A stretch of DNA of 32,000 nt from Methylorubrum extorquens. GTDB lineage: Bacteria > Pseudomonadota > Alphaproteobacteria > Rhizobiales > Beijerinckiaceae. The position numbers were made by a program, and so were the translations under genes. Within the stretch, counting starts at the first letter, position 1. Each line of letters opens with the position of its first letter. Positions 3,352 to 32,000 of the stretch are shown piece by piece. Under the pieces are notes generated by a model. That model saw only the letters and a list, made by a program, of their open reading frames with translations, was not told the DNA's origin and searched no databases. The stretch is taken from positions 5,160,001 to 5,192,000 of the forward strand of contig LT962688.1 in NCBI GenBank assembly GCA_900234795.1, in the 5' to 3' direction.

Positions 3352-3384
3352 CGCATGGACACTCCATAACGCCCAATCCGCGAA

Positions 3385-6477: not shown

Positions 6478-6527
6478 GCGGCCGCCAAGCTTCTCAAGGG
6501 CCTCATTCAGCATAACCAGGGGACTTG

Positions 6528-6607: not shown

Positions 6608-6834
6608 CGGTTCCGCGGGTCCCCCATTGTGATGCTGCTTCGTGACCTGCGCAGCCCCGCGCAGGGTGCAGGGCAACCGCCTCGCGCGGCGATTGGCTGA
6701 GGAACGTCCTGATCGCCGTCGGTCTTGCCGCTGACCTGCTTGCGCTTTGCCAAGGGTGCCCATGCTGCACCGGTGAACGGCCACCGACTGAAGCTGCAGA
6801 GCGCGCGAAGGATTGAACCCAGAGGGATCGAACC

Positions 6835-7812
6835 ATGACGTCCGGGCTCGTCGGTGATGCCGTTCTCGCGCCAAAGCCCGCCGATCGCCCCGGCATGCGC
6901 TGGATCCCCGGTGGGACCTTTCGTATGGGCTCCGACCGGCACTATCCCGAGGAAGCCCCGGTTCATCGGGTCACCGTGGATGGCTTCTGGATGGACCAGA
7001 GCCCGGTCACGAATCGGCAGTTCCGGCGCTTCGTTCACGCCACAGGCTACCGCACCGTCGCCGAGATTCCGCCGGATCCGAAGGACTATCCCGGCGCGCT
7101 GCCGCATCTGCTGTTTGCTGGGTCGCTCGTCTTCGTGCCGCCACGCGGGCCCGTCGACCTGCGTCATTGCAGCCAGTGGTGGCGGTTCCTGAAAGGGGCG
7201 GACTGGCGCCATCCCTATGGCCCGGGCAGCTCGATCAAGGGCCTCGACGAGCACCCGGTGGTGCACGTCGCCTACGCCGATGCCGAGGCCTACGCAGCTT
7301 GGGCCGGTAAGGCGTTGCCGACCGAGGCCGAGTGGGAGTTCGCCGCGCGTGGCGGCCTCGACGGGGCGGAGTTCGCCTGGGGTGAAGAGTTCACGCCAAG
7401 CGGCCGCCTGATGGCTAACACCTGGCAGGGCGACTTTCCCTACCTGAACACCGCCGATGGCTCTTTCCGGCGGACGACTCCGGTGGGCGCCTTCCCGCCG
7501 AACGGCTACGGCCTCCTCGACATGATCGGCAACGTCTGGGAGTGGACGGCGGACTGGTTCGCGCAGCGGCATCAGGCCGACGCCCCGAAGGCCTGCTGCA
7601 TCCCCCAGAACCCGCGCGGCGGACGGGAGGCGGACAGCCTTGACCCTCGTGATCCGCAGAGCCTGATCCCGCGCAAGGTGGTGAAGGGCGGCTCGCATCT
7701 CTGCGCGCCGAACTACTGCCGGCGCTACCGCCCCGCCGCCCGCCACCCCCAGCCTGTCGACACATCGATGAGTCACGTGGGCTTCCGGACCATCATCAGG
7801 GAGAGGAACTGA
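6835..7812 (+). CDS. Formylglycine-generating enzyme (FGE/SUMF1 family), copy 1
   Basis: GTFRMGSDRHYPEEAPVHRVTVDGFWMD..PVTN..F, GNVWEWT, KGGSHLCAPNYCRRYRPAAR (Cys-x4-Cys pair). No signal peptide. Confidence 0.9.
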   Translation: MTSGLVGDAVLAPKPADRPGMRWIPGGTFRMGSDRHYPEEAPVHRVTVDGFWMDQSPVTNRQFRRFVHATGYRTVAEIPPDPKDYPGALPHLLFAGSLVFVPPRGPVDLRHCSQWWRFLKGADWRHPYGPGSSIKGLDEHPVVHVAYADAEAYAAWAGKALPTEAEWEFAARGGLDGAEFAWGEEFTPSGRLMANTWQGDFPYLNTADGSFRRTTPVGAFPPNGYGLLDMIGNVWEWTADWFAQRHQADAPKACCIPQNPRGGREADSLDPRDPQSLIPRKVVKGGSHLCAPNYCRRYRPAARHPQPVDTSMSHVGFRTIIRERN

Positions 7813-7814
7813 CC

Positions 7815-15934: not shown

Positions 15935-17250
15935 AGTCAATGGGCGGCAGCTCAATCCAGAGCGTTCGACGCTTTCGGGTGCCTGCGTTCTCTACGTGCT
16001 CGTGCGGCACTTGATGGGGTCAGCTGGGTGCAAAGCGGCTCGGTTGAAAGCGCAGTCGGCGCAAGGCCGCATGCTACAGAATCGGCGCCATCTTCTGCTC
16101 CCTTCCTCGGGCGTCGCTCCCGCTCGGGAGCTCGGTTCGGCCTCCTGTCCGGTGATGTCAGCCGCTACGCAGGTCGGAACTCGGTGCCCTGCCGCAGCAT
16201 CGCGTGCATGATGATCGCTAGCCGGCGCGCGAGAGCGATGCGGGCCTTGCGCATCGTAGAGCGCTTCGCGATGGCCAGAGCCCAAGCCTTCAGCTTCAGG
16301 GGCTGCCTGCAGCGCGTCAGCATCACGTTGGCGGCTTCGTACAGCAGCGTTCTGACCCGCCGGTCGCCGCACTTCGAGATGCTACCGGTGTAGTCGACCT
16401 CGCCCGATTGGTAGCGTCGCGGAACAAGGCCAAGATACGGACCGACGTCGCGGGAGCGCCTGAAGCGCTCAGGATCATCGACGGCTGCCGTGAAAGCGAG
16501 CGCGGTGAGTTGACCGACGCCCGGGATCGTCATCAACCGCCGGCAGGCATCTGAGGCTCGGACCATCCGCTTGATATCTGCATCGATGGCGGCGACAGCT
16601 GCCAGCACGGCAGCTCGTGCTCCGATCAGGCCGCGCATGGCGGCGGACAGTCCAGCGATCCCCTCGCTCGAACGCAGAGCCTGCTCGATGAACGCAGGGC
16701 TGAGCGCCCGCGGTAGCCGCACCCCGAACACGACGGCAAGACCGCGGATCTGGTTCTCCAGCGTGACCCGCTGGCCGACCAGCTTCTTGCGCGCGATGAT
16801 CAACGACCTCACGGCGTGTGCCGGCAGCGACTTCACGTGCACCGGCTTGAAGAAGCCTGTTCGTGCCAGATGAGCCAGACCGCGCGCATCGTTCCGGTCG
16901 GTCTTGTGCGTCGTAAGCGACTTCAAGGCTTGGTAAGCCTGCCGGCTCTCGACGCAGACGACCGGCACACCATGGTCGGCCAAGCCGTGGAACAGCATTG
17001 GAGCCATCCGGCCTGTCTCGAACACAGCCCGACGGCAGGCAGGCGCCTTCGCGAGTTCCTGCGCGATGTCGGCAGGCGTAGAGGCCACCTTCGCCTGATG
17101 GGTAACTACTCCGTCGCGGTCGACCACGCAGACGTGCGTCTCCTCCATCGAGACATCTAGGCCAGCGAAATACTCCATAATCAGCCTCCTCTTCCGGCAG
17201 CGGAGCCGATCCTATCGACTTCCGCAGAAGAGCTGCCGCCCATTACCCGA
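15935..17250 (-). mobile_element. IS110-family element with subterminal inverted repeats (IS1111-like layout); the ends are approximate
   Basis: A perfect 15-bp inverted repeat, AATGGGCGGCAGCTC (15939-15953) and GAGCTGCCGCCCATT (17230-17244), brackets the transposase gene. The 5' leader is short (about 70 nt) and the 3' non-coding end long (about 230 nt). Confidence 0.7.
16165..17178 (-). CDS. IS110-family transposase
   Basis: MEYFAGLDVSMEETHVCVVD.., HKTDRNDARGLAHLARTGFF, LMTIPGVGQLTALAFTAAVDDPERF, GLVPRRYQSGEVDYTGSISKCGD. GGAAGAGGAGG lies upstream of the ATG. Confidence 0.9.
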   Translation of the reverse strand: MEYFAGLDVSMEETHVCVVDRDGVVTHQAKVASTPADIAQELAKAPACRRAVFETGRMAPMLFHGLADHGVPVVCVESRQAYQALKSLTTHKTDRNDARGLAHLARTGFFKPVHVKSLPAHAVRSLIIARKKLVGQRVTLENQIRGLAVVFGVRLPRALSPAFIEQALRSSEGIAGLSAAMRGLIGARAAVLAAVAAIDADIKRMVRASDACRRLMTIPGVGQLTALAFTAAVDDPERFRRSRDVGPYLGLVPRRYQSGEVDYTGSISKCGDRRVRTLLYEAANVMLTRCRQPLKLKAWALAIAKRSTMRKARIALARRLAIIMHAMLRQGTEFRPA

Positions 17251-17251: not shown

Positions 17252-17431
17252 GTTGAAAAACTCCGGGACCGTGCGCCAAGCGTCGCCCAGCACAGGTCGC
17301 CGTAGAATATTTGTCTATTATCAGTGATGCGATGCGACGATAACCGCGTATCCTAAGCAATTCAGGAGCAGGATCTTCTCCCGAAAACGCGGCTGGCGGT
17401 GCTGCTTCGAGCCGATCCCGAGTTTTTCAAC
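17252..17431. repeat. Imperfect inverted repeat enclosing a 147-bp AT-richer segment, directly abutting the IS110-family left end
   Basis: GTTGAAAAACTCCGGGA (17252-17268) pairs with TCCCGAGTTTTTCAAC (17416-17431): 16 matching positions with a one-nucleotide bulge. Confidence 0.6.
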
Positions 17432-18005
17432 GAAATCCGCCAGCAGCTGACATTCGCCTAGGAGCAGCGGAAAGTCTGCTCTTGGTGCAGGAGCCTACTT
17501 CGATGCGCATGGCGCCAAGTTCAGCTCCCGCAGAGATCGAAGCCGTAGGAAATAGCTCGGCTGCCTCCGCGTTGCGCAATCCTTGGACAATGTCATGCAC
17601 TATGTAGCCGAGTTCCTGACCGAGTAGGGTGATGACACCTGACGGGACACGGCCTCGGCGGACCTGGGGCATTTGGACCAGCTCGGGGCAATCAAGCGAG
17701 TAGGAAGAGGTGGCTTCCGACCCGAGAAGAGACGGTCTCGTCTAGCGGCTGGCCCCCCATCGCCCTGGCGGGACGAGGCTTCACAGTCCGAGACGCTTTA
17801 GCGGGGATCGCCAGCACCTTCGTGTCGATGAACGCTGCAGCCGCCCGAATGGTGGAGGCGGTTATACGGCACACCGACTTGGGCTGCCGCCGCGACCGGC
17901 TGCTCCAGACCTAGGCAGTGCTGGACTGCCTCGACTGGTTTCGGGGACCACGGAGCAACGAACGGCTAGAGGACGCGAATGCCTGGGCGCCTTGAAGCTC
18001 AGTAC

Positions 18006-18369
18006 TTACCGGCGGAAGCGACCACCACCGTGGAAGCCTCGGCCGCCATGAAAGCCGCCGCCTCTGTAGACGCTGACGCGTCGACCGTAGGCGCCTCGCG
18101 CACCGTAGACCCGGCCGCCACGATACCCATAGACCCCGCCGCGGCGGTAGCCGTAGACCGCCCGCCCGCCATAGTAGGCTGGGCCGCCATAGTATCCGCC
18201 GTAGACGTTCCGCCGGCACCCGCCGTACGGACCACGGTGGAAGCCGATGCCGCAGCCGCCGGCCGCCTCAGCCACGCCGACACCGATCCGTCCCCTTCTC
18301 CACTGAGCCCAGGCTGAGCCAGGCTCCGAAGAGCAAGGCGGTGAACGCCACCAATCTCATGCGTCGCAT
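18006..18369 (-). pseudogene. Gly/Tyr/Arg-repeat small secreted protein (GCG..CRxN prefix plus YGG repeats), with the signal peptide out of frame
   Basis: 18275-18006 encodes ..AAGGCGIGFHRGPYGGCRRNVYGGYYGGPAYYGGRAVYGYRRGGVYGYRGG... A signal-peptide ORF MRRMRLVAFTALLFGAWLSLGS (from 18369) sits in a different frame and stops at 18268-18270. Confidence 0.5.
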
Positions 18370-18473: not shown

Positions 18474-18560
18474 AGAGCGCCGCGTCCGGGAAGTGTCATC
18501 GCTGTAACAGTAACAATGATGACTTCCGGCCTCATGCCGGCCGAGGATTTGCCGAAGTCA
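18474..18560 (+). mobile_element. Relic of an IS5-family left end (terminus-like AGAGCGCC, leader motif, degenerate orfA start) upstream of aqpZ
   Basis: AGAGCGCC (18474-18481) is the reverse complement of the putative right terminus at 517-524. CTGTAACAGTAACAATG (18502-18518) matches the leader at 27757-27773. The following GGCCTCATGCCGG resembles TGGCTCATCCCGG at 27792-27804. Confidence 0.3.
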
Positions 18561-18620: not shown

Positions 18621-19355
18621 ATGGACATCCGCAAGTGCGCGGCAGAGGCCATCGGCACGTTCTGGCTCACCTTCGCGGGCTGCGGCAGCGCCGTTATCGC
18701 CGCCGGCTTCCCTGAGGTCGGCATCGGGCTGCTCGGGGTCTCCGCCGCCTTCGGCCTGACCGTGGTCACCATGGCCTACGCCATCGGCCACATCTCAGGC
18801 TGTCATCTCAACCCGGCGGTCACCTTCGGCCTCGCCGCAGGGGGACGCTTCCCGACACGCGACATCCCCCCTTACGTGATCTCGCAGGTCATCGGCGGCG
18901 TGGTCGCCGCGGCGCTGCTCTATGCCATCGCCAGCGGATCACCCGGGTTCGATGTCGCCAAAGGCTTCGCTGCCAACGGCTACGGCGAGCACTCGCCGGG
19001 GCAGTATGGACTGTTCTCGTGCCTCCTAGCCGAGGTGGTGCTCACGATGATGTTCCTGTTCGTCATCATGGGAGCGACCCACGGTAAGGCGCCAGTCGGC
19101 TTCGCGCCGTTGGCCATCGGGCTCTGCCTCACGCTCGTCCACCTCGTCGGCATTCCGGTCACGAACCTCTCGGTCAACCCAGCACGGAGCACCGGGCCGG
19201 CCCTGTTTGCGGGCGGCGGGGCCATTGCGCAGCTCTGGCTGTTCTGGGTCGCGCCGATCCTCGGCGGGGTGCTCGGCGGGATGCTCTACCACTGGATCAG
19301 CGCGGAACCCTCGGCGCAAGTCACCGGCGTCGTGCCACCCGCACCTGCGGAGTGA
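18621..19355 (+). CDS. aqpZ: Aquaporin Z
   Basis: GAGGAGG lies before the [28 protein letters not shown].., two NPA boxes (HLNPAVTFG and [10 protein letters not shown]). Confidence 0.92.
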
Positions 19356-19356
19356 C

Positions 19357-19402
19357 GGAACGGTAAGCCGGATTTCAGCCAGAGGCCGGCTGCGGCCGTT
19401 CC
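19357..19402. terminator. Extended hairpin after aqpZ
   Basis: GGAACGG..AGCCGG-loop-CCGGCT..CCGTTCC. There is no clear U-tract. Confidence 0.35.
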
Positions 19403-19422
19403 ACGTTGCCGATAAGCAATCC

Positions 19423-20409
19423 ATGCCGGACGCGCCTACCCTCGAACGACCGATCCTCGCGCCAGATGCGGATTCCGGCATGGTCTACGTGCCAGCTGGC
19501 ACCTTCCGGATGGGATCGAACCGGCACTATCCCGAAGAGGCGCCCGTCCATCGCGTGCGCGTCGACGGGTTCTGGATCGACCGCACCCCGGTCACGAACG
19601 CGGAGTTCCGAGCCTTCGTCCGGGCCACGGGTCACGTGACGGTGGCGGAGCAGCGGCCGGACGCGAAGGACTACCCGGACGCGCTGCCGCACATGCTGCA
19701 GGCCGGCTCGCTCGTCTTCAAGCCACCGAAAGGCGAGGCCGACCTGAGGGACTGGGGCTCGTGGTGGAGGTTCAGGTTCGGGGTGCACTGGCGCAAGCCG
19801 TACGGGCCGGGTTCCTCGATAGCAGGCCTCGACGAACATCCGGTCGTTCACGTCGCTTGCGCCGATGCCGAGGCGTACGCAGCCTGGGCGGGCAAGGGAA
19901 TGCCCACCGAAGCCGAATGGGAATACGCCGCCCGTGGAGGCCTGGATGAGGCTGAGTTCGCCTGGGGCGACACCCTCGCACCCGGCGGCCGGCACATGGC
20001 CAACACCTGGCAGGGTGCCTTCCCCCACCAGAACCTGGCCGAGGACGGCTTCGAGCGTACATCGCCGGTCACCGCCTTTCCGCCGAACGGCTACGGGCTC
20101 TTCGACATGATCGGTAACGTCTGGGAGTGGACGGGCGACTTCTTCGCGGACCGACATCCTGCCGATGCATCGAAAGCCTGTTGCATCCCGCGGAACCCGC
20201 GGGGCGGCCGCGAGGACGGGAGCTACGACGCAAACCAGCCCGCGATCAGGATACCACGTCGGGTGCTCAAGGGTGGCTCACACCTCTGCGCACCGAACTA
20301 TTGCCGCCGCTACCGGCCGGCGGCTCGCCATCCGCAGGCGGTCGACACATCCGCCAGCCATATCGGCTTCCGCTGCGTTCGTAGGACGGACAGCATCGAT
20401 GAAAGGTGA
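19423..20409 (+). CDS. Formylglycine-generating enzyme (FGE/SUMF1 family), copy 2
   Basis: GTFRMGSNRHYPEEAPVHRVRVDGFWID, GNVWEWT, KGGSHLCAPNYCRRYRPAAR. About three-quarters identical to FGE1 over the first conserved block (40 of 51 residues, counted by eye). Confidence 0.9.
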   Translation: MPDAPTLERPILAPDADSGMVYVPAGTFRMGSNRHYPEEAPVHRVRVDGFWIDRTPVTNAEFRAFVRATGHVTVAEQRPDAKDYPDALPHMLQAGSLVFKPPKGEADLRDWGSWWRFRFGVHWRKPYGPGSSIAGLDEHPVVHVACADAEAYAAWAGKGMPTEAEWEYAARGGLDEAEFAWGDTLAPGGRHMANTWQGAFPHQNLAEDGFERTSPVTAFPPNGYGLFDMIGNVWEWTGDFFADRHPADASKACCIPRNPRGGREDGSYDANQPAIRIPRRVLKGGSHLCAPNYCRRYRPAARHPQAVDTSASHIGFRCVRRTDSIDER

Positions 20410-20492
20410 CGACCGAGACTAACGGGAAGCTTCACGCGAGGCACATCCGTCGTGCCGAGCCACAACGTTCGTACGAGACGTGGGGATCGGAA

Positions 20493-22880
<2,388 letters not shown>

Positions 22881-22940
22881 TCGATGGCGCGCCGAGCGTC
22901 GCTTTGCCTTTGATTCCATGACATGCGGGAGGAGCAGACT

Positions 22941-23081
22941 ATGAGCGAGCTTAGGCGGAATCGCTTGGCCGCAGGACTCGGCTCGATCCTCCCCGAGATG
23001 ATCGCTGCGCATTCTGCGAGGGTGCAGACGGCGGACAAACGGATCGGGCTGGTCGCGGCCCCTGAGGAGACATCGCGATGA
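22941..23081 (+). CDS. 46-codon ORF, translationally coupled to the downstream DUF1254/DUF1214 gene (speculative)
   Basis: GGGAGGAG lies 7 nt upstream of ATG 22941. The stop TGA (23079-23081) overlaps ATG 23078 (ATGA). It is below the ORF-track length cut-off. Product: MSELRRNRLAAGLGSILPEMIAAHSARVQTADKRIGLVAAPEETSR. Confidence 0.3.
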   Translation: MSELRRNRLAAGLGSILPEMIAAHSARVQTADKRIGLVAAPEETSR

Positions 23082-24445
23082 TCTCCCGCCTCCTCATCCT
23101 TGGCCTCATCGGCACCCTGTTCTCGGGTGCGGTCAGGGCTCAGCAAGCAAGCGTCGGCGAAGCCCGAGCCACCGCCAAGGAGGCGTACGTCTATGCCTAT
23201 GCGATGCTGGAGAACTATCAGACGTTCCACAAGCAGGTCGTGGACGACAAAGCCTCTGAGTACGTCGGCGGCTTTGGCCGCTTCCGGCACTACGCCCAGG
23301 CCTTCACACCCGAAAACCGCGACGTCGTCACCCCGAACAACGACACCCCGTATTCCTGGGCTTGGCTCGATCTGCGCGCCGAGCCCTGGGTGGTGAGCGT
23401 CCCGGCCGTGCCGGACGAGCGCTACTACGTGATGCAGTGGTTCGACCTCTTCACCCACAACTTCGCCTACATGGGCTCCAGGACCACCGGCAACGGGGCC
23501 GGCAACTACCTGTTCGCCGGGCCACGCTGGAACGGGAGCGTGCCCGAGGGCATCCGTCAGGTGTTCCGCGCCGAAACGGAGATCGTCGGAACCCTCACCA
23601 GGACGGCGTTGGTGGGACCGGAGGATGTGCCGAACGTGCGGGCGGTCCAGCGCGGCTACCGTCTCCAACCCTTGAGCGAGTTCGAAGCATTTCGCCCCCC
23701 GGCACCGGCCCCGTCCGCCAACTTCCCTGCCTACGACCGCTCCAAGGCCCGCTCCGAGGACTTCATCGGCTACCTGAACGTCCTGCTGCACTTCGCGCAG
23801 CCGCCGGACCCGAGCGAGGTCGATCTGATGCGGCGGTTCGCACGGATCGGCATCGGTCCCGGGCTGCCATGGGACAAGTCGAAGCTGGACCCGGCGCTCC
23901 TCGAAGCCATCAAGGCCGGGGCGTCCGACGGTCAGGCCGCCATCGACGCGCAGGCGGCCAAGACGTTCGATTCCGGTCCCTTGTTCGGCACCCGGGCATT
24001 CCTGGAGAACGACTACATCCGGCGCGCCATGGGTGCCGACAAGGGCCTGTACGGCAACTCTCGCGAGGAGGCTTGGTACGGCGGCTTCGTCGGCAACGGC
24101 GCCAAGCTGTCGATGATGCGCTTCGCGGCGGACCAGCTGCCGCCCGCGCGGTTTTTCTGGTCGCTCACGCTCTACACCCTGCCGGACCGCGGCCTCTACG
24201 CGAACACGGAGAAGCGCTACTCCCTAGGCGACCGCAGCAAGGGCCTGGTCTACGGCCCGGACGGCTCCCTCACGGTCTACCTGGGACACCAGTCGCCCGG
24301 GCCGTCGCATGAGGCGAACTGGATTCCGGCGCCGCAAGGCCCCTATTCGCTCGTCGCCCGTGTCTACGGGCCGAAGCCGGAGCTCCTGTCAGGGCAGTGG
24401 AAGCTCCCGCCGCTGGAGCCCGTCGCGTCCTCCGAACGCCCTTAG
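23078..24445 (+). CDS. DUF1254/DUF1214 domain protein with a Sec signal
   Basis: MISRLLILGLIGTLFSGAVRAQQ, TPNNDTPYSWAWLDLRAEPWVVSVP..RYYVMQWFD, FFWSLTLYT..ANWIPAP..YSLVARVYGP. Confidence 0.85.
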   Translation: MISRLLILGLIGTLFSGAVRAQQASVGEARATAKEAYVYAYAMLENYQTFHKQVVDDKASEYVGGFGRFRHYAQAFTPENRDVVTPNNDTPYSWAWLDLRAEPWVVSVPAVPDERYYVMQWFDLFTHNFAYMGSRTTGNGAGNYLFAGPRWNGSVPEGIRQVFRAETEIVGTLTRTALVGPEDVPNVRAVQRGYRLQPLSEFEAFRPPAPAPSANFPAYDRSKARSEDFIGYLNVLLHFAQPPDPSEVDLMRRFARIGIGPGLPWDKSKLDPALLEAIKAGASDGQAAIDAQAAKTFDSGPLFGTRAFLENDYIRRAMGADKGLYGNSREEAWYGGFVGNGAKLSMMRFAADQLPPARFFWSLTLYTLPDRGLYANTEKRYSLGDRSKGLVYGPDGSLTVYLGHQSPGPSHEANWIPAPQGPYSLVARVYGPKPELLSGQWKLPPLEPVASSERP

Positions 24446-24456
24446 GATGCCAAGTC

Positions 24457-25326
24457 ATGGGGGCAGGTTTGCGCGTCGACCGGAGATCATCGCTGATGCG
24501 AGGGGGGCTCCTCGCCCTTACGCTGACCGCACTCGTTGCCACGCCGGCTGAGGCGGGGACCAGCTCAATAGACGGAGGGCGGATCCGGGTCGTCTACGAG
24601 GCTCCGAAGAAGGCGGCCTACCGCGAGATCCACGACACCATGCGGCAGCGCCGTGTCCTGGAGCGGGTCGGTGCCATCGTCGGCCTCGTTCGGCTGCCGA
24701 CACGGCTGACCTACCGGCTGAAGGAATGTGCCGGCGAGCTCAACGCCTGGTACGCTCCGGAAAACCGCAGCATCACCATCTGCTACGAGCTTATCGACAG
24801 CATCGTTCGCGCCGCCCCTGAGAAGAGATCTCCGGCCGGCGTAACCCGCCATGAGGCGATCCGGGGACCGGTTTTCCAGATCCTCCTGCACGAGAGCGGC
24901 CATGCTCTGTTCGACCTGCTGGGCATCCCGATCCTCGGGCGCGAGGAGGACGCCGCCGACCAGGTCGCCTCGCTGATCCTCCTTCACCTGTCGCCAGCCG
25001 ACGCGCGCATGGTCGTGGCGGGAAGCGCCTACTTCTTCGCGACGACGGCCAAGGGCGAGCCGGTCGACAAGGGCGCCTTCTCCGACGAGCATGGCCTGTC
25101 CTGGCAGCGCTTCTACAATCTTGCCTGCCTCGCCTACGGCTCGGACAAGCGGCGCTACCGCGCCGTGCTGACCAAGCAATACCTGCCGAAGGAGCGGGCC
25201 GAGAGCTGCGAGGAGGAGTACGGGCAGGTCGCCTTCGCCTTCGCGAAACTCATCGGTCCGCATCTGCGTGCGCGACTCAAGGACGGCGAGCGCCTTCGGC
25301 GCGCCTTCCGCTCCGCCCTCATATGA
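24457..25326 (+). CDS. DUF4344-like putative secreted metallopeptidase (HExxH)
   Basis: Signal-like LLALTLTALVATPAEA. CAGELNAWYAPENRSITICYELID and LLHESGHALFDLLGIPILGREEDAADQVA resemble the DUF4344 family. The start could also be 24496. Confidence 0.7.
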   Translation: MGAGLRVDRRSSLMRGGLLALTLTALVATPAEAGTSSIDGGRIRVVYEAPKKAAYREIHDTMRQRRVLERVGAIVGLVRLPTRLTYRLKECAGELNAWYAPENRSITICYELIDSIVRAAPEKRSPAGVTRHEAIRGPVFQILLHESGHALFDLLGIPILGREEDAADQVASLILLHLSPADARMVVAGSAYFFATTAKGEPVDKGAFSDEHGLSWQRFYNLACLAYGSDKRRYRAVLTKQYLPKERAESCEEEYGQVAFAFAKLIGPHLRARLKDGERLRRAFRSALI

Positions 25327-25577
25327 GGTTCGCCACGATGCCGCTCATCGACATCTTCACCTGGGCCGTCCTTCTGGTGGTAGCCGCCACCCTCGTTGCA
25401 ACGTTCGTCGCCCTTGGCGTCATGCCGGGTCGCATTGCCCGCAAGCGCGGCCACCCCTGGGCGCAGGCGGTAGCCATCGGAAGCTGGGCCACGCTTGTCT
25501 TCGGCTTCGTGTTCTGGCCTCTGATCCTGATCTGGGCCTACGTCGACGTCCCAGCCAAGCGGGAGACGGTCCGATGA
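25323..25577 (+). CDS. DUF3302 (YiaW-like) small inner-membrane protein
   Basis: MPLIDIFTWAVLLVV..GRIARKRGHPWAQAVAIGSWATLVFGFVFWPLILIWAY resembles E. coli YiaW. The start overlaps the upstream stop (ATGA); an alternative ATG lies at 25338. Confidence 0.7.
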   Translation: MRFATMPLIDIFTWAVLLVVAATLVATFVALGVMPGRIARKRGHPWAQAVAIGSWATLVFGFVFWPLILIWAYVDVPAKRETVR

Positions 25578-26509
25578 TCATCGTCCTGCTGAACAGCTAC
25601 ATCGCGCTCCTGGTCCTGTTCGTCTGGCTCGGCTTCGTCCGCCTGAACCTGTTCTGGAAGCTCTCGCCGGTCCTCGTGCTTCTTGCCCTGCTCGTCGGGC
25701 TGTTCATTCCGATGGGATGGGGGGCGCCGTGGGGCCCGGCGGCAGTCATCCGCAACTCGGTCCAGATCATCCCTTCCGTGGCCGGCGAGGTCGTCGACGT
25801 ACCGGCTGCCGCGAACAAACCCGTCAAGGAAGGAGACGTCCTGTTCCGCATCGACCCCGTTCCCTACAAGTCGCAGTTCGATGCCATCGATGCCCAGCTC
25901 AAGCTGGCGCAGACACGCCTCGCCGAGATGACCCAGTTGCAGAACCGGGGGACCGGCCGCGGCTTCGACGTCGAGCAGCGCCAGTCCGAGGTCGACCACC
26001 TGAAAGCGCAGCTTGAGGGTGCCAAGTGGAACCTCGACAAGACGACCGTTCGGGCGCCGGCCGCCGGCTACGTGACCAACCTGGCGCTCCGGAAAGGCGC
26101 ACGGGTCACCGCGCAGTCACCAGTGATGGCCTTCATCGACACCTCCGAGACGATCCTGGGTGCGGAGATCCCGCAGATTGACGCGCGCTACATCGAACCC
26201 GGGCAACCTGTCGAGGTCACATTCAAGGCCTTCCCGGGCGAGGTCCATGCCGGCCGGGTCGAGGCGGTGCTGCAGGCCATCGCGACGGGACAGGCTCAGC
26301 CCGGCGGGCTCGCGGTCGCGCCATCAGAGATCCACTCTGCTCCCTTCGTCGTCCGGTTCAAGCTCGATGACCCAGAGGTAGCCCGCCGCCTTCCGGCGGG
26401 CAGCAGCGGCACGGCCGCCGTCTACACCGAGCACGTTCAGGCTGCGCACGTGATCCGGAAGGTCGTACTGCGGCAAACCGCGATCCTGAACTACGTCAAC
26501 CCGTTCTGA
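25574..26509 (+). CDS. HlyD-family membrane-fusion/periplasmic adaptor protein (YiaV-like)
   Basis: The ATG overlaps the DUF3302 stop (ATGA). An N-terminal TM segment is followed by VAGEVVDVPAAANKPVKEGDVLFRIDPVPY, a coiled-coil (QLKLAQTRLAEM..) and TTVRAPAAGYVTNL. Confidence 0.85.
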   Translation: MIIVLLNSYIALLVLFVWLGFVRLNLFWKLSPVLVLLALLVGLFIPMGWGAPWGPAAVIRNSVQIIPSVAGEVVDVPAAANKPVKEGDVLFRIDPVPYKSQFDAIDAQLKLAQTRLAEMTQLQNRGTGRGFDVEQRQSEVDHLKAQLEGAKWNLDKTTVRAPAAGYVTNLALRKGARVTAQSPVMAFIDTSETILGAEIPQIDARYIEPGQPVEVTFKAFPGEVHAGRVEAVLQAIATGQAQPGGLAVAPSEIHSAPFVVRFKLDDPEVARRLPAGSSGTAAVYTEHVQAAHVIRKVVLRQTAILNYVNPF

Positions 26510-26538
26510 ACGCGCCGTTGCGTGACAGGGAGAGAGCC

Positions 26539-27615
26539 ATGAAGAGGATCGTTCTTGCAGCGCTTGCCACGGCCTCTCTCGCCTTCGCCGCCCACGCGAG
26601 GGACGCACCCACGCAGGATCCGGCCCCAGGTCAGGGTGCCGGACCATCCGATGCCAAAGGTAGCCCCGTGCCCGTCACGCCCGACAACTTCGTCCGGGCG
26701 GAGAGCGACCTCTACTTCGGCAACATCGTCAAGGATGGCGGTCTCGGCCAGTTCGTCCACCGACGCGAGCCGGCGGCCATCGACAACCAGACGATCATCC
26801 GGCTCAACCGGGACACCCTGTACTCCGCGGCGGTCTTCGACCTCGACGCAGGTCCGGCGACCGTCACGCTGCCCGATGCGGGCGGCCGCTTCCTGTCGAT
26901 GCAGGTGATCGACGAGGATCAGTACACCCCGCCTGCCATCTACGAGCCGGGCCCGCACACGCTCACGAAGGACAAGGTCGGAACACGCTACGTCTTGGTC
27001 GGGGTGCGAACCCTGGTCGATCCCGGGGAGCCTGCCGACCTCGCCAAAGTCCATGGCCTGCAGGATGCGATCAAGGTCGAGCAGCCCGGCGGCCCGGGCA
27101 AGTTCGAGGTGCCCGCCTGGGATCCGGTGAGCCAGAAGAAGATACGCGAGGCGCTGCTCGCGCTCGCCACGACGGTCGTGGATACTAGCAGGGCCTTCGG
27201 CATGAAGGATCAGGTCGACCCGGTCCAGCGCCTCATCGGCGCAGCCTCGGCCTGGGGTGCCAATCCACCGAAGGATGCCACCTACCTCAACGTCGTACCG
27301 GCGCAGAATGACGGAAAGACCGTGTACCGGCTGATCGTCAAGGACGTGCCGGTACACGGCTTCTGGTCGGTCAGCCTCTACAACGAGAACGGCTTCTACG
27401 AGAGGAACGAACTCGGCGCCTACACCCTCAACTCCATCACCTCGAAAAAGGGCGCGGACGGCTCGGTCGACATCCAGTTCGGCGGCTGTGACGGCAAGAT
27501 CACAAACTGCCTACCGACCCCGCCGAAATGGAACTACATGGTCCGCCTGTACCGACCCGGGCAGCAGATCCTGGACGGAAGCTGGAAGTTCCCCGAGGCA
27601 CGGCCGGCGAGTTGA
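26539..27615 (+). CDS. Short-form DUF1254/DUF1214 domain protein, secreted
   Basis: MKRIVLAALATASLAFAAHA signal. FVRAESDLYF..NRDTLYSAAVFDL..PDAGGRFLSMQVID (DUF1254-like). GFWSVSLYN..WNYMVRLYRP (DUF1214-like). Confidence 0.8.
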   Translation: MKRIVLAALATASLAFAAHARDAPTQDPAPGQGAGPSDAKGSPVPVTPDNFVRAESDLYFGNIVKDGGLGQFVHRREPAAIDNQTIIRLNRDTLYSAAVFDLDAGPATVTLPDAGGRFLSMQVIDEDQYTPPAIYEPGPHTLTKDKVGTRYVLVGVRTLVDPGEPADLAKVHGLQDAIKVEQPGGPGKFEVPAWDPVSQKKIREALLALATTVVDTSRAFGMKDQVDPVQRLIGAASAWGANPPKDATYLNVVPAQNDGKTVYRLIVKDVPVHGFWSVSLYNENGFYERNELGAYTLNSITSKKGADGSVDIQFGGCDGKITNCLPTPPKWNYMVRLYRPGQQILDGSWKFPEARPAS

Positions 27616-27770
27616 CCGTCAGACCGGAGCACAGCATCACACGGATCATTGACCGTCCGGACGCCAATCCAGCCCTTGAAGCCGTTGCGTGTACGGCGCC
27701 GGCAGATCTTCCATGGAGTGCCCATGGTTCGGAAGGCGAACCCCGCGAAGTCAAGGCTGTAACCGTAACA

Positions 27771-27911
27771 ATGCGGAGTGGCCCGTGGCCGTGGCTCATC
27801 CCGGAGCGACTGTGGCAGACGAGCCATAGACTGGCAGGAAGCCAAGAGCGCAGGTTTGGCGCGGTTGGCACGGGCCTTTCTCGGATGCCGGCTGGCCACC
27901 TTGAGGCCTAA
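27771..27911 (+). pseudogene. N-terminal relic of an IS5-family (IS427-like) orfA
   Basis: MRSGPWPWLIPERLWQ..ERRFG.. resembles the PW(L/I)(I/V)xDELW..RRFR N-terminus of the IS5-type transposases to which the 1-517 fragment belongs (assigned from memory). It is preceded by the leader motif CTGTAACCGTAACAATG. Confidence 0.35.
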
Positions 27912-27940
27912 CGTCTGATGTAGTTCGGGGGAGGCGAGAC

Positions 27941-28962
27941 ATGGGGTCGTGTGCACGTCGCCTCGTCGGCGGTTTGATCCTCGGAGCGTTGATCGCCTCA
28001 TCGGGCGCCAAGGCTGCCGAGGGCGGCCTCAGCTTCTACATCGAGGGGCAGTCCGTCCCCCTTGGCGGCATCGTGCCGCCGCCGGGCCTCTACTTCGACA
28101 GCACGACCTACTTCTACAACGGCAAGCTCGGCGGCAACCGGAGCACCCAGCTCGGCGGCAACGTCGTCGCCAACGCCAACGTCAACCTCGTGGCCAACTT
28201 CGCGACGGCCCTCCGGGTCACGCCGGTGCAGGTTCTCGGGGGTGAACTGGCCTTCGCCTTCGTGATGCCCTTCGGCGAGCCGGTTGTGCGTGCCGGCGTC
28301 CTGCTCAACGGCCCCTCGTCAATCAGGCGCTGGGCCGGCCGGTAGGCGCCTCGGTGAGCGATGCCAGTCTAAACCCGGGCGATCCCATCCTATCGGGGAG
28401 CCTCGGCTGGCATTCCGGCAACTGGCACTGGAAGGTGACCGGTCTGCTCAGCATCCCAGCCGGCGGCTACGAGCCCGGGCAGCTCTCGAACATCGCCCTC
28501 AACCGATACATCGGCGACATCTCGGCCGCGGCGACCTACCTCGACCCGGTCATCGGTATCGAACTCTCGGCTGCTGGGGGTTTCACGCTCAACGGCAGGA
28601 ACCCCGCGACACGGTACGTGACGGGCCACGAGTTCCACGTCGACGTCTCGGCCTCGAAATACCTGACCAAGGAGCTGTCGGTCGGCGTCATCGCCTCGCA
28701 CTACCAGCAGATCACGGACGACAGCGGACCCGGTGCCCGGCTCGGTCCGTTCAAGGGCCGGGTCACGGCGGTTGGAGGGACGGTCGGTTTGACGGCCCCC
28801 TTCGGCGGAATCCCGATTTCCGCCCGCGTTAAAGTGCTGCGCGAGGTCGAGGTGGAGAACCGCTTCCAGGGCACCATCGGCTTCCTGGAAGTCTCGTTCC
28901 CGCTCTGGGTGGCGTCACCGAAGGCAGCGCCTGAGGCCAAGCCCTTGCTCGCCAAGTTCTGA
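27941..28962 (+). pseudogene. MetA-pathway/SphA-like outer-membrane channel, disrupted by a 1-nt frameshift in a C4 run (28312-28315)
   Basis: ORFs 27941-28345 and 28354-28962 together align end to end with the 3537-4550 protein. Adding one C at 28312-28315 restores ..VLLNGPLVNQALGRPVGASVSDASLNPGDPILSGSLGWHS... Confidence 0.8.
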
Positions 28963-29093
28963 GCGTTCGTTGGGGCTCGGTAGGACCGGATTTGGCGTGA
29001 ATACCCATGGAAGCGCCTAGAGGCCTTTTCCGGCGCGGCAGGGCAGTTAACAGTTACGAGCCGGCGGCGGGCTTGCCGGCGTCTCGGCCGGAC

Positions 29094-29915
29094 TTAATGC
29101 ACGACGTTCGCGACCCGGCGGGCCACCGCCTCGGCCCTCGTGTTGATTCGTGCGGCCACCGGCGGATCCTCATCGACCTGATCGACGAAGTCCGAACCCC
29201 TGATCTCCCCGCTGCGCAGGTCGGAGAGCGACCAGGCATAGCGGCGGCCCTCGGCTATCCCATGCACGGAAACGTCGAGGGCGTAGACCGACTCGGAATG
29301 GCGGAGAAGGTCCTGGATGGCCTGGGCAGGGGCCCTGCGCTCGGGATGCGGGATCACGAAGACCCGGAACCCGTGGCCGGCGGCGGCTCGGACAACCGCC
29401 TGCACGAACATCTCTCCAGTTGCCATAGCGCATCGGTCACGCTGGTCGGTCCGGTGAATGACGACCAGTGAGATCCTGGCCTGGCCGGACCGGGCATGAA
29501 CCGCGTCCGGGGCTTCCACCATGGGTTCACGAACGGACGTTGGCGCGGCCTTGGCCGACACGAATTCGGGGATATACGAACCAGGGCGGAGCACGATACG
29601 GAACGGGTCGGCCGCGCCGGGACCCTCATAGTACACCGCGAGTGCTGTCCTTATCCGGGTCGCTTCAATGCGAACGATGGGATCCGTACTCGGATCGAAG
29701 CACGGACCGCGCCCGAACACGTCCACGCCTATGGCGTAGGCCTTGATGCGTTCGGCGCGCCCGGACAGGGTCTCATTGACCACGAAGGCCAGAAAGCGGC
29801 GGTTTCGCTCGGACAATCGGAGAGCGCTTCCTGCCAGTAGGGAGCGCATCGCTTCCTCGACATCCGCTCGCGCGAGCGTAGCGGCTGCAATCGGTGACGA
29901 CGGGCCGGCTTCCAT
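29094..29915 (-). CDS. Hypothetical regulator-like protein (a module found after the wHTH in cyclase/TPR regulators, plus a TolB-N-like domain)
   Basis: GGAGG lies before the ATG. ERNRRFLAFVVNETLSGRAERIKAYAIGVDVFGRGPCFDPSTDPIVRIEATRIRTALAVYY..LRPGSYIPEF. This is pattern recognition only; no DNA-binding domain was seen. Confidence 0.5.
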   Translation of the reverse strand: MEAGPSSPIAAATLARADVEEAMRSLLAGSALRLSERNRRFLAFVVNETLSGRAERIKAYAIGVDVFGRGPCFDPSTDPIVRIEATRIRTALAVYYEGPGAADPFRIVLRPGSYIPEFVSAKAAPTSVREPMVEAPDAVHARSGQARISLVVIHRTDQRDRCAMATGEMFVQAVVRAAAGHGFRVFVIPHPERRAPAQAIQDLLRHSESVYALDVSVHGIAEGRRYAWSLSDLRSGEIRGSDFVDQVDEDPPVAARINTRAEAVARRVANVVH

Positions 29916-30015
29916 CGGAACCTCCGCAAGATGCGACCGACCCGGAAGATACTGCCTACAACTTCAGATAAGCTCACCCGCATTCGCGAGGCAAGCCTAA
30001 ATTCATGTTAAGAGG

Positions 30016-30261
30016 TCATTCCGCTTTGCGGAGGATGTCTTTTTCGACCTCGGCCGCGAGCACCCGATACTCGCACGTCCGATCTGGTGCGGCTGGGTCG
30101 TTCGACTTCGCCCAGAACTCCACCGCGGCGCACGCCGCCTCGTAGGCCTCGCACAGTTCCAGGAAGTAGGGGTCATCCGCGGCCAGACGGCGGAACGCGG
30201 CACGGCGCTGCGGGTGCCGGAGCATGAGCCTCGCCAGGCCGCGTCGTTCAGAACAACCCAT
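30016..30261 (-). CDS. Small hypothetical protein
   Basis: ATG at 30261 (the ORF track starts at a TTG at 30294). MGCSERRGLARLMLRHPQRRAAFRRLAADDPYFLELCEAYEAA... No family recognised. Confidence 0.4.
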   Translation of the reverse strand: MGCSERRGLARLMLRHPQRRAAFRRLAADDPYFLELCEAYEAACAAVEFWAKSNDPAAPDRTCEYRVLAAEVEKDILRKAE

Positions 30262-30597
30262 CGCAGTCTCTGGGCAGGAAAGCTGTCCGCGCAAGCCGGT
30301 GACCCGTCATCATGCGCCTGGATGGCGCGTGCGGGGATTGTTACGGTTACGAAGCTAGAAGGGTTTCACGCTGCGGTGCATTCCCGTACGGCAACCTACC
30401 GTCCCTCGCAGGGAACACGTGGACAGCCACTGCTAGGGAGCACTCTTCTGGATGTGGCTGCCTCTGGGTTGTCCGCTTAGTGGAGTGGAGCGGGCCTCTC
30501 TGCTGGGACAGCGCAAGGTCCGGAAGGGGTCATTCGGCACCCTGGAGGGCGACCATCCTGCTGGCACGCCGCGGCCATTTCCACCGCGGCGTCCGGT

Positions 30598-30747
30598 TCA
30601 GATTTCGGTCTGCTCTGAGAGGATCAGCGCGTCGTCAACCTCAATGCCGAGATAGCGAACCGTGCTCTCCAGCTTGGTATGGCCAAGGAGCAGTTGGCAG
30701 GCTCGGATATTGCCGGTGCGCTTATAGACCAGCGCGACCTTCGTGCT
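30598..30747 (-). pseudogene. Tyrosine integrase, C-terminal 49-codon fragment
   Basis: STKVALVYKRTGNIRACQLLLGHTKLESTVRYLGIEVDDALILSEQTEI is the typical C-terminus of Rhizobiales site-specific integrases, including the catalytic-Tyr region (VRY). Confidence 0.65.
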
Positions 30748-30864
30748 GTCCGAGCGAACATGCTCGGGCACGCCGCGCAGGATGAACAGGTCGGACAAGA
30801 CGTCGATCACGTCGGCTGCCTTGAGCTTGCGCGCGACCCGGATCGCCAAGCACTCGCTGTGGAT
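30748..30864 (-). pseudogene. IS3-family orfB internal fragment, fused in frame to the integrase fragment
   Basis: IHSECLAIRVARKLKAADVIDVLSDLFILRGVPEHVRSD matches the IS3 integrase-core segment just before the usual DNGPEF. Confidence 0.65.
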
Positions 30865-31231
30865 TGGCTTTGAAGCAGGGCCTAGGGAAAAACAGAAGTA
30901 GAACGTTGTTATTGCGAGCAGAATCGAGAAGAAAACATAGGCCTGATCGGCGCCGATCGGGAGACCGCCTAAAACTAAAATTCGTCCGTTTGTTGGGGAT
31001 GTTACTCCCGCCCGAGAGGGGGCCGGTTCTACCCCTATCTACACGCGAGCTCAGCCTTGGCCGCCAGTGCCGGTATCAAGCGCCCGAGCATAGCCAGAAC
31101 AGCTATGATCGCTCGGCTTGGATCGGCACCTCGCCTCCATCGAGCTGAACAATGTCTACCTATTCCGGAACCTGAGGCGTGCGGCCGCGTAATTTATCAA
31201 GACTTCGGTGTTTCGGCCCTGAGGGGTTAGC

Positions 31232-31870
31232 ATGCGCTCCCGTTCGCTCGCTGCATTGTCGAGCTCGTTGCTGACGGCGGTGCTCTCTCTTCCTGCCGTG
31301 GCCGACGTCCGCATTAGGATCGATCAAACCAGCCAACGGATGTCTGTCTCCGTTGATGGGCAGCCGCTCTATCACTGGCCAGTGTCAACCGGATTGCAGG
31401 GACACAGAACCCCAAACGGATCATTCAGGGCCTTGCGACTGGAAAGGGTCTACTTTTCTCGCAAGTACGACAATGCACCGATGCCTCATGCCGTCTTCTT
31501 CACATCGGTCGGGCATGCGATTCATGGCACTCGGCACGTCAGACAGCTCGGCCGGGCGGCGTCGCACGGATGCATTCGCTTATCGCCCTCAAATGCTGCA
31601 GCACTGTTCAGCATCATCGAAGCTGAGGGTTCAGGAAACACACGGATAACAATAGTAGGAAGCGATCCACTGGTTGCCGGCAATAGAGCACGTGACTTTA
31701 GGACCGCGGCACATAGGCGGCGTTATGATTATAGTGCTGTGCCCGCAGGGTTGCAGATTCAGGCGGAACCCGTTCACGGCTATTACACTCGCGTTCCGGT
31801 CGGCCCATCCTACCGACACCCGGCATACGTGCCCTATGAGTTCGATCCGGGCGACGACAGCCTCGAGTAG
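31232..31870 (+). CDS. L,D-transpeptidase (YkuD) family protein
   Basis: Signal MRSRSLAALSSSLLTAVLSLPAVA. Catalytic motif HGTRHVRQLGRAASHGCIRLSPSNA. Confidence 0.85.
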   Translation: MRSRSLAALSSSLLTAVLSLPAVADVRIRIDQTSQRMSVSVDGQPLYHWPVSTGLQGHRTPNGSFRALRLERVYFSRKYDNAPMPHAVFFTSVGHAIHGTRHVRQLGRAASHGCIRLSPSNAAALFSIIEAEGSGNTRITIVGSDPLVAGNRARDFRTAAHRRRYDYSAVPAGLQIQAEPVHGYYTRVPVGPSYRHPAYVPYEFDPGDDSLE

Positions 31871-32000
31871 TGGGTACACCCGCAGCGGCTTCTCGGCGTT
31901 CCAGTTAGCAAGTTTTCGGAGACGGGGCTGTTCGCCTTCGTGTTCCTGGTCACCGCAGCAGATCACGCGGTGACTGGCTACAAACTGCTGGTCCCGTAGA

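Follow-up and report, generated by a model that had tools for sequence, protein, structure and literature searches.

A shared GTWAC-N-GTWAC site and a candidate regulator accompany an exported-sulfatase, DUF1254/DUF1214 and DUF3302–HlyD gene cluster in Methylorubrum extorquens

In a 32,000-nt stretch of the Methylorubrum extorquens genome (GenBank assembly GCA_900234795.1, contig LT962688.1, positions 5,160,001 to 5,192,000; hereafter the window, with a high GC content of about 65%), a run of same-strand genes at positions 19423–27615 places a formylglycine-generating enzyme (FGE) and a sulfatase beside members of the DUF1254/DUF1214, DUF4344, DUF3302 and HlyD families. A preliminary description, made from the sequence alone, presented this run as an eight-gene operon that might encode a trans-envelope apparatus. 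The Pfam families that it named all hold (FGE, Sulfatase, DUF1254 with DUF1214, DUF4344, DUF3302, HlyD and a second, shorter DUF1254/DUF1214), and a signal peptide or membrane segments are present in every product of the run except FGE. As analyzed here, the segment would be the distal part of a unit led by an aquaporin gene, in the order aqpZ, FGE2, sulfC, DUF1254/1214a, DUF4344, DUF3302, HlyD and DUF1254/1214b. This unit, an adjoining MetA-like outer-membrane channel gene and a divergent gene pair, small81-REG, have the same rare 11-bp site in their promoter regions, and the reading that we hold to be rather more probable than its alternatives taken together is that they form one regulon of exported and membrane proteins processing esterified compounds.

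The transcription unit probably starts at aqpZ (18621–19355, forward strand) and not at FGE2, as had been described, because aqpZ lies on the same strand 67 nt upstream of FGE2 and carries a conserved copy of the site. The gene encodes a 244-residue aquaporin Z (Pfam MIP, 5e-49; NCBIfam aquaporin Z equivalog, 382.9 bits against a cutoff of 256) and is the first cluster gene in L001, L006, L007, L086, L087 and L179 (L numbers denote loci from other genomes). Within the run, the junctions read as previously reported: GTGA at 20406, ATGA at 23078, an 11-nt gap before 24457, ATGA at 25323 and again at 25574, and a 29-nt gap before 26539. The genes from aqpZ through DUF1254/1214b would be carried on one transcript. 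A weak terminator-like hairpin is located directly 3′ of the sulfC stop codon (22885–22901, forward strand); because terminator-like sites in the region are no more numerous than in shuffled sequence, this hairpin is not evidence of termination. A promoter consensus scan of the region gave 0 promoter-like sites and no signal above shuffles, an Rfam scan of the whole window matched no family, and megablast against plasmids returned single-gene matches only (71–81% identity). Positions 19094–32000 are 99.3% identical to contig LMNP01000023.1 of Methylobacterium sp. Leaf121, which we take to be a member of a culturable Arabidopsis leaf isolate collection, and likewise to the Logan assembly of run ERR1103851.

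The site common to the promoter regions of aqpZ, the MetA-like gene and small81-REG is GTWAC-N-GTWAC, in which the GTAAC and GTTAC half-sites are mutual reverse complements. It was first seen, while the junctions were being read, as TGTAAC(A/C)GTAACAAT upstream of both aqpZ and MetA. Searched as a 16-bp pattern with up to 2 mismatches, it gives 3 matches in the window against 0 expected in shuffles. Copy 1 (GTAACAGTAAC, 18504–18514) is located 107 nt upstream of the aqpZ ATG and occupies the same position in L001, L086, L087 and L007. Copy 2 (GTAACCGTAAC, 27759–27769) lies 172 nt upstream of the MetA-like gene, as it does in L001 and L087, and copy 3 (GTTACGGTTAC, 30340–30350) lies about 80 nt upstream of small81-REG, with the same placement in L001, L087 and L088. 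A degenerate version with one mismatch (TTAACAGTTAC, 29047–29057) is found between the convergent ends of MetA and REG; at the equivalent position L087 has an exact site (16477). Copy 1 is nested in a longer inverted repeat (GTCATCgctGTAACaGTAACaatGATGAC, 18490–18530), the outer arms of which (GTCA...TGAC) are also present in L007, L001, L086 and L087, and this repeat could be a second protein-binding element or a hairpin. To our knowledge, none of the Zur, PhoB, LysR (T-N11-A) and extracytoplasmic-function (ECF) promoter readings fits the spacing and sequence of the motif well. The 1.2 kb upstream of the aqpZ operator (17427–18330 in the window, 3525–4708 in L001 and 1661–2750 in L086) shows 85–92% DNA identity in relatives, where it contains a divergent gene for a 120–128-residue hypothetical protein with weak similarity to the window open reading frame (ORF) at 875–1675 (reverse strand). 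This gene may be a further unit sharing the operator.

The same site is found in other genera of alphaproteobacteria from soil and plants. In Rhizobium and Agrobacterium loci, it is located upstream of arylsulfatase and MetA genes, between DUF3302-HlyD and a hydrolase gene, and between divergent regulator and DUF1254 operons; in Bosea, Hansschlegelia and three further contigs, it precedes sulfatase, hydrolase, MetA, DUF1254, DUF3302 and MoxR units. The consensus of 68 distinct sites is YGTWAC-N-GTWACR. Metagenome loci anchored on REG homologues (80 loci, 494 kb) contain 41 sites, or 83 per Mb, compared with 3 sites, or 2.3 per Mb, in about 75 unrelated DUF4344 control loci from similar taxa (1.33 Mb). 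The sites are concentrated on either side of the REG reading frame, 65–520 nt upstream and a short distance downstream. A rare motif is thus observed upstream of the individual units and is conserved across genera, and its association with REG, like the gene content and its conservation, is read directly from the loci.

REG (29094–29915, reverse strand) is a 273-residue soluble cytoplasmic protein and the candidate regulator. It is always immediately preceded by small81 (30016–30261, reverse strand), which encodes an 81-residue soluble protein with an invariant LCEAYE motif, and the pair is kept beside the cluster in Methylobacterium, R. johnstonii, Bosea, Hansschlegelia and several uncultured genomes. 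Neither protein matches an entry of Pfam, NCBIfam or the PDB, whether searched as a single sequence or as a profile; a Pfam search of 30 REG-family members likewise gave no match, and a homologue search with the N-terminal domain of REG alone returned only short unannotated fragments. The AlphaFold2 model of REG (mean pLDDT of 83.3) consists of two domains. The predicted N-terminal domain contains three helices and a β-hairpin, like a winged helix, and the C-terminal α/β domain is similar to PelC, LpoB and the N-terminal domain of TolB (Foldseek, 2e-5). In hhalign comparisons, the third helix (IVRIEATRLRSAL) and the hairpin fall in register with the recognition helix and wing of PhoB/OmpR; the alignments with PhoB, OmpR, CadC or winged-helix domains harvested from the loci are all in register and non-significant. 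The main argument for REG as the binder of the GTWAC-N-GTWAC site is that the site travels with the REG protein family, and REG would also regulate itself.

The N-terminal domain of REG also heads proteins of about 550–650 residues that have C-terminal tetratricopeptide (TPR) repeats, in metagenome loci L115, L125, L133, L138, L153, L157, L124 and L130; in one of them, the middle domain is weakly FlgO-like. These TPR-type genes frequently have a small81-like gene and a GTWAC-N-GTWAC site close by, and the clustering of sites persists where the REG-type domain heads a protein of about 600 residues. The family to which REG belongs seems to extend far beyond the sulfatase regulon. In the window, a gene for a YkuD-family L,D-transpeptidase (31232–31870), which is not conserved with the cluster, lies a little past the small81-REG pair.

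With DUF4344 as the first anchor for comparing neighborhoods (82 loci; 80 genome loci in the neighborhood analysis), only close Methylobacterium/Methylorubrum orthologues, of at least about 70% identity, have cluster neighbors. The further DUF4344 loci, of which there are more than 70 and which belong to other Alphaproteobacteria, to Burkholderiales, to Anaeromyxobacter and to other groups, have none of these neighbors. DUF4344 was therefore rejected as the core of the system. In at least 6 Methylobacterium/Methylorubrum loci, aqpZ, FGE, sulfatase (with or without HAD), DUF1254/1214, DUF4344, DUF3302-HlyD, a further DUF1254/1214 and MetA recur in shuffled order. The order is aqpZ, FGE, sulfatase, HAD, DUF4344, DUF3302, HlyD, a gap, DUF1254/1214, DUF2721 and MetA in L001; aqpZ, sulfatase, FGE, DUF1254/1214, a small gene, DUF4344, DUF3302, HlyD, two DUF1254/1214 genes and MetA in L087; and aqpZ, sulfatase, HAD, FGE, DUF4344 and MetA in L006 and L007. 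The eight-gene operon is thus not a fixed one: content overlaps among genomes, but the order and the sulfatase-containing cassette differ.

Outside Methylobacterium, several genes from the following list stand together in loci on R. johnstonii, R. tumorigenes and A. tumefaciens plasmids: arylsulfatase, α/β hydrolase, a MetA-type ‘transporter’, long and short DUF1254/1214, DUF3302-HlyD and a MoxR-DUF58-DUF4381-VWA-BatD operon. The R. johnstonii locus has arylsulfatase, α/β hydrolase, the MetA ‘transporter’, small81-REG and long and short DUF1254 genes, and that of A. tumefaciens has three DUF1254/1214 genes, the ‘transporter’, HlyD-DUF3302, a hydrolase, an arylsulfatase and MoxR-DUF58-VWA. On a Microvirga plasmid, DUF3302-HlyD is followed by short and long DUF1254/1214 genes. 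Subsets drawn from sulfatase, MetA, long and short DUF1254/1214, DUF3302-HlyD and HAD or α/β hydrolase also occur in Bosea, Hansschlegelia, JGI and NCBI contigs and metagenome loci L099 and L102–L104. Gene tables of the 13 REG-orthologue loci with enough flank were used to count neighbors within 10 kb: sulfatase is present in 9, MetA in 9, FGE in 8, DUF1254/1214 in 7, DUF3302-HlyD in 6, MoxR/DUF58 in 6, and DUF4344 and aqpZ in 3 (Methylobacterium only). More distant REG-like proteins (33–38% identity) have none of these neighbors. The expected co-occurrence of the families elsewhere is borne out in part: subsets recur across genera together with the shared site, but FGE2 and sulfC are absent from L086 and DUF4344 is linked only in Methylobacterium.

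FGE2 (19423–20409, forward strand; 328 residues, PF03781, 2.3e-79) lacks a signal peptide and has the catalytic Cys pair of the aerobic enzymes, C-x4-C followed by RYR (CAPNYCRRYR, GGSHLCAPNYCRRYRPAAR). The product of sulfC (20493–22880, forward strand; 795 residues) is a predicted exported S1 formylglycine arylsulfatase that has a Sec signal peptide, a full-length match to the PF00884 profile (1.2e-56), the C/S-x-P/A-x-R formylglycine motif in the form CSPTR (LCSPTRAALLSGR, residues 126–138) and a C-terminal concanavalin/LamG-like tail, detected as a weak Laminin_G_3 match. A PDB search matched 67 solved sulfatases, led by 7all (1.3e-54) and then P. aeruginosa arylsulfatase 1hdh (9e-53). The preliminary description had left two readings of the FGE2–sulfC junction. 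The start in the GTGA overlap at 20406–20409 was rejected, as ATG 20493 gives a Sec-type signal peptide and is the called start in the 99.3%-identical contig (795 residues); with sulfC starting at ATG 20493, the gap is therefore 84 nt and there is no overlap. Two long antisense ORFs, one of 811 residues opposite sulfC (20577–23012, reverse strand) and one of 433 residues opposite the FGE1 gene (6601–7902, reverse strand), were rejected as genes and are regarded as shadow ORFs typical of high-GC DNA; the 433-residue ORF is without a Pfam match, and in every locus that it matched it runs antisense to an FGE gene.

FGE2 and sulfC together constitute a variable cassette (19403–22924, bounded by the blastn blocks against L086). 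In L086, the closest non-conspecific relative (92–96% identical on both flanks), these positions are replaced by about 20 nt, and aqpZ is followed directly by DUF1254/1214a, DUF4344, DUF3302 and HlyD. A sulfB-type sulfatase, with or without HAD, occupies the cassette position in L001, L006, L007 and L087; the sulfatase at this position in other species has about 72% DNA identity to sulfB of another cluster, the first in the window. Because the cassette is absent from L086 and a different sulfatase stands at the same place in other species, the FGE/sulfatase genes appear to be an exchangeable cassette on a stable scaffold.

A HAD-IB hydrolase gene follows the sulfatase in most loci, metallophosphoesterase and PPK2 genes are neighbors in some, and NCBIfam shows a weak similarity, below threshold, to the phosphoric/sulfuric ester hydrolase PehA. 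These features would suit phosphate scavenging, in which the ‘sulfatases’ of the alkaline phosphatase superfamily act mainly as phosphodiesterases or phosphonate-monoester hydrolases (PMH) alongside periplasmic HAD phosphatases; phosphoesterase activity is known among formylglycine enzymes, as in the PMH of Rhizobium and Burkholderia. Among solved structures, however, the best relatives are genuine arylsulfatases (P. aeruginosa 1hdh, human ARSA and steryl-sulfatase), the operator is no Pho box, and neither a PhoB-type element nor a pst/pho gene is linked, leaving phosphate scavenging a quite improbable role.

The other sulfatase cluster of the window (1891–13615) is without an exact GTWAC-N-GTWAC site. 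It comprises a DUF1254/1214 gene (1891–3351), an intact MetA-like gene (3537–4565, reverse strand), an AraC regulator gene (5371–6477), FGE1 (6835–7812), two sulfatase genes (7815–9668 and 9721–11442; variant CTAGR motif), a gene for a HAD-IB hydrolase with a signal peptide (11467–12519) and one for an LssY_C-domain membrane protein (12716–13615). In other Methylobacterium species, the sulfB-type sulfatase and HAD genes sit in the aqpZ operon instead. Between the two clusters of the window are two IS110-family transposase genes (14491–15780, forward strand; 16165–17178, reverse strand), and the rearrangement by which sulfB-HAD and the aqpZ unit came apart may have involved these elements.

Insertion sequences of this kind (both within 14491–17178), the presence or absence of the FGE2–sulfC cassette between close relatives and the differences in gene order between species are what would be expected of a mosaic island, in which unrelated genes are joined by recombination and the short gaps reflect compact packing, with no functional unit at all. 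This explanation is very hard to reconcile with the observation that the same families are found together, despite rearrangement, in at least 4 Hyphomicrobiales families and with the same rare 11-bp site (83 versus 2.3 per Mb); we give it almost no weight, and chance juxtaposition is effectively excluded. Since the families stay together through rearrangement with that site, the comparison of loci supports a functional linkage beyond chance, as a regulon with a candidate new regulator.

The first DUF gene of the run, DUF1254/1214a (23078–24445, forward strand), encodes the long form, a 455-residue protein with a signal peptide, an N-terminal PF06863 (DUF1254, 5.6e-47) and a C-terminal PF06742 (DUF1214, 1.1e-24) domain and a full-length match to PDB 3u07 (VPA0106, an unannotated structure; 2.9e-40). 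In R. tumorigenes, a 62%-identical orthologue adjoins an arylsulfatase gene. DUF1254/1214b (26539–27615, forward strand) encodes the short form, a 358-residue protein with a signal peptide in which the DUF1254 match covers profile positions 2–58 only; orthologues of this form are paired with the long form in R. johnstonii, R. tumorigenes and Microvirga. DUF1214 has been speculated to be a glycoside-hydrolase-like jelly-roll (PMC4634964). The 46-codon ORF that had been counted as an operon gene (22941–23081, forward strand) does not hold up as one. L086 keeps it open, including the Shine-Dalgarno sequence, the ATG and the ATGA overlap, but the 40 substitutions are spread 13/15/12 over the codon positions, compared with 7/7/33 in the adjacent DUF1254 gene, and change 24 codons nonsynonymously and 4 synonymously. 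This pattern shows no coding constraint; the ORF has no Pfam or NCBIfam match, is absent from the other orthologous loci and may at most be a translated spacer.

DUF4344 (24457–25326, forward strand) encodes an exported 289-residue HExxH protein (PF14247, 5.6e-54). In an alignment of 29 sequences, His145, Glu146 and His149 of the HESGH motif (at residue 145) and Glu163 to Asp168 are invariant, as are the GREEDAAD motif and four Cys residues. The HExxH motif and the downstream acidic ligand are those of a putative metallopeptidase. The PDB sequence search gave no match, and Foldseek searches of the PDB with the AlphaFold2 model (pLDDT of 84.6) gave none below 1e-3, with weak matches to gluzincins (M61 aminopeptidase 7xyo, 0.033; M1, thermolysin and collagenase, 0.7 or above). 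DUF4344 has been listed among type IV secretion effector domains (PMC6536674). Many Methylobacterium genomes have multiple copies (at least 4 paralogues in M. nigriterrae and M. oxalidis; tandem pairs in L002 and L024), and an AraC-family gene is near DUF4344 in 13 of the 82 loci.

DUF3302 (25338–25577, forward strand; 4e-25) encodes a 79-residue inner-membrane protein with two hydrophobic segments. The ATGA described as its overlap with DUF4344 is present at 25323, but this start was rejected since the upstream ATG is out of frame in L001 and L087 and the calls in relatives are all of 79 residues; the start is most likely ATG 25338. The adjoining gene (25574–26509, forward strand), the start of which overlaps DUF3302 by 4 nt, encodes a 311-residue periplasmic adaptor of the HlyD/MFP family. 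The architecture is that of an adaptor: a hydrophobic N-terminus serves as the predicted membrane anchor, and HlyD_D23 (4e-16), HlyD_3 (5e-13) and Biotin_lipoyl_2 (1e-7) domains are detected, together with a match to NCBIfam RND_mfp TIGR01730 (8e-31, 107.2 bits against a cutoff of 94.9) and weaker, sub-threshold NCBIfam similarity to MdtN, EmrA and AaeA. The overlap is kept in L001, L087, L090, L091 and L183. No adjacent inner-membrane transporter (ABC, RND, MFS or FUSC) and no TolC-family factor was found in the window or in L001, L087, L179, L090, L091 and L183. The pair has a YiaW/YiaV-type arrangement and is not a complete tripartite exporter.

The outer-membrane channel gene reported at the end of the run is indeed there (27941–28962, forward strand), but it is frameshifted. 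Compared with L001 and L087, the gene has lost 1 nt of a C-run at about 28312, and its MetA/Phenol_MetA_deg domain (PF13557) is split over two frames; an intact paralogue is located at 3537–4565. In the 99.3%-identical Leaf121 assemblies, the gene has a different 1-nt deletion, at window position 28061. Either the copy is decaying independently in the two genomes or both assemblies contain homopolymer sequencing errors.

These genes bear most directly on the proposal of the preliminary description that the products form one trans-envelope machine, with HlyD and DUF3302 in the inner membrane reaching the MetA channel and DUF1254/1214 and the sulfatase acting on a sulfated hydrophobic substrate in transit. 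All products but FGE are exported or in the membrane, DUF3302-HlyD, MetA and DUF1254/1214 recur together in several loci, and MetA-family channels are generally tied to hydrophobic compounds, as is P. aeruginosa SphA; a sulfated, hydrophobic substrate is plausible. The apparatus is, however, a conjecture, because neither an inner-membrane transporter nor a TolC-type partner is present for the adaptor in the window or the relatives examined. DUF3302-HlyD is also missing from many REG loci that keep sulfatase and MetA (L083, L092, L103 and L104), and MetA is a separate unit with its own operator and is frameshifted at different places here and in Leaf121. The channel at the head of the unit, moreover, is a water channel and no solute importer. 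A single machine is therefore considered improbable.

In the model that we favor, each unit of a regulon would be preceded by YGTWAC-N-GTWACR, to which REG would bind, with control of its own synthesis. Formylglycine sulfatases would be matured by cytoplasmic FGE before Sec export, and the further cargo would comprise periplasmic HAD or α/β hydrolases, periplasmic DUF1254/1214 pairs, the membrane-anchored DUF3302-HlyD pair and a MetA-family outer-membrane channel. Outside Methylobacterium, the regulon would include the MoxR-DUF58-VWA (Bat-like) operon; Methylobacterium would have added aqpZ and the putative DUF4344 zinc hydrolase, and the sulfatase/FGE module would be exchangeable between strains. 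For the substrate and the physiological signal we infer, from this cargo, that the most likely role is the periplasmic processing of esterified organic compounds, sulfate esters foremost, that would enter through the MetA channel. This role is favored because a sulfatase with FGE and a second hydrolase are the commonest cargo. A more specific proposal is evenly balanced between being right and being wrong: REG and small81 would be an undescribed two-protein transcription-control module, with a divergent winged-helix-like domain fused to a TolB-N/PelC-like domain in REG, and this module would recognize YGTWAC-N-GTWACR and control a regulon of exported enzymes and DUF proteins that is conserved in Hyphomicrobiales.

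Several observations weigh against these proposals. The Foldseek matches of REG cover its C-terminal domain only and are to periplasmic lipoprotein-like folds; its hhalign comparisons with winged-helix domains are not significant (P = 0.098 and 0.014); and no significant match to Trans_reg_C or to a solved winged helix places it in the OmpR/PhoB/CadC family. An unlinked factor could bind the site instead. The MetA copy of the window is frameshifted, and the Cys and Met content of the proteins, taken as a sign of sulfur starvation, is not discriminating and gives no clear sulfur-economy signature. No sulfatase is found within 10 kb of REG in Hansschlegelia locus L093 or in the loci L099, L102 and L183; sulfate esters may therefore not be the defining substrate. 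Finally, nutrient scavenging accounts for a water channel and a Bat-like operon no better than a stress regulon does.

In such a stress or maintenance regulon, the genes would serve the envelope of the bacterium itself or homeostasis in its periplasm, for instance when cells on leaf surfaces face desiccation, osmotic or oxidative stress, and the sulfatases would be an accessory module. Besides the aquaporin Z gene at the head of the unit in Methylobacterium and the MoxR-DUF58-DUF4381-VWA operon with the same operator outside it, the dispensability of the sulfatase in some loci and the DUF2721, LolA-like DUF2092, Na/H exchanger and PPK2 genes present in some loci are consistent with this role. 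Sulfatase with FGE is nevertheless the most frequent cargo beside REG (9 of the 13 loci), and the chaperone, protease and lipid-synthesis genes typical of known envelope stress regulons are missing; we regard this role as unlikely, although it is the strongest of the competitors to the processing of esterified compounds.

The nearest described kind of system is the set of Pseudomonas loci for sulfate-ester utilization (atsA, atsRBC, atsK, sftR and sftP). Shared with these is a regulated cluster around a formylglycine arylsulfatase, with an outer-membrane entry protein and a dedicated regulator, and the P. aeruginosa arylsulfatase is the second-best solved relative of sulfC. In contrast, the sulfatase here is predicted to be exported, a MetA-family barrel takes the place of the TonB receptor, there is no ABC importer, and the candidate regulator is not of the LysR type. 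The Pseudomonas loci contain nothing that corresponds to the DUF1254/1214, DUF4344, DUF3302-HlyD, aqpZ and Bat-like genes. In P. aeruginosa, the AraC regulator SphR adjoins SphA, a MetA-family outer-membrane protein induced by sphingosine. The likeness lies in a MetA/Phenol_MetA_deg protein as the regulated entry point for a lipophilic compound and extends to the first cluster of the window, in which the AraC gene is divergent from the MetA-like gene; the MetA gene considered here is instead preceded by GTWAC-N-GTWAC rather than an AraC gene, and sphingosine-metabolism genes are absent.

The DUF3302-HlyD pair resembles E. coli YiaW-YiaV, YibI-YibH and AaeX-AaeA-AaeB, in which the gene for a small protein with two transmembrane segments overlaps the start of a gene for a membrane-anchored HlyD-family adaptor of about 310 residues. 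As with YiaWV and YibIH, no pump gene is linked, in contrast to AaeA, which works with AaeB; the pair described here differs from those of E. coli in being embedded in a sulfatase/DUF1254 regulon. With the OmpR/PhoB/CadC regulators, REG shares the predicted α-α-α-hairpin topology, with IVRIEATRLRSAL...GSYxPxF in register with the recognition helix and wing, and an operator of two adjacent 5-bp half-sites. Unlike them, it has no significant Trans_reg_C match, receiver domain or transmembrane segment, its C-terminal domain is TolB-N/PelC-like, and it has an obligate small partner protein. A Bacteroides-type Bat operon (MoxR-DUF58-DUF4381-VWA-VWA, with or without BatD) is placed after sulfatase genes, with the same operator, in Bosea, Agrobacterium, Rhizobium and metagenome loci; the MoxR-DUF58-VWA operon is not present in the window. 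The view that these families are joined in no described pathway stands, in that a literature search found no such paper. It likewise found no functional study of DUF1254/DUF1214, DUF4344, DUF3302/YiaV-type adaptors or the Bat-like MoxR-VWA operon, nor of YiaWV or YibIH.

Arylsulfatase clusters are of a kind already described; what is new is the candidate regulator, its putative operator and the placing of several orphan families in what would be a sulfatase-centered regulon. DUF1254/DUF1214, DUF4344, DUF3302 with YiaV-type adaptors and the Bat-like MoxR-VWA operon occur widely, and a shared operator with a candidate cognate regulator makes a hint from guilt by association testable for all of these families at once. 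If the proposal is true, five orphan families would gain their first shared physiological context, and the regulator family would be much larger than the regulon. Sulfatase/FGE modules that appear to be swapped in and out of a fixed regulatory scaffold would also bear on the prediction of organosulfur turnover by plant-associated bacteria.

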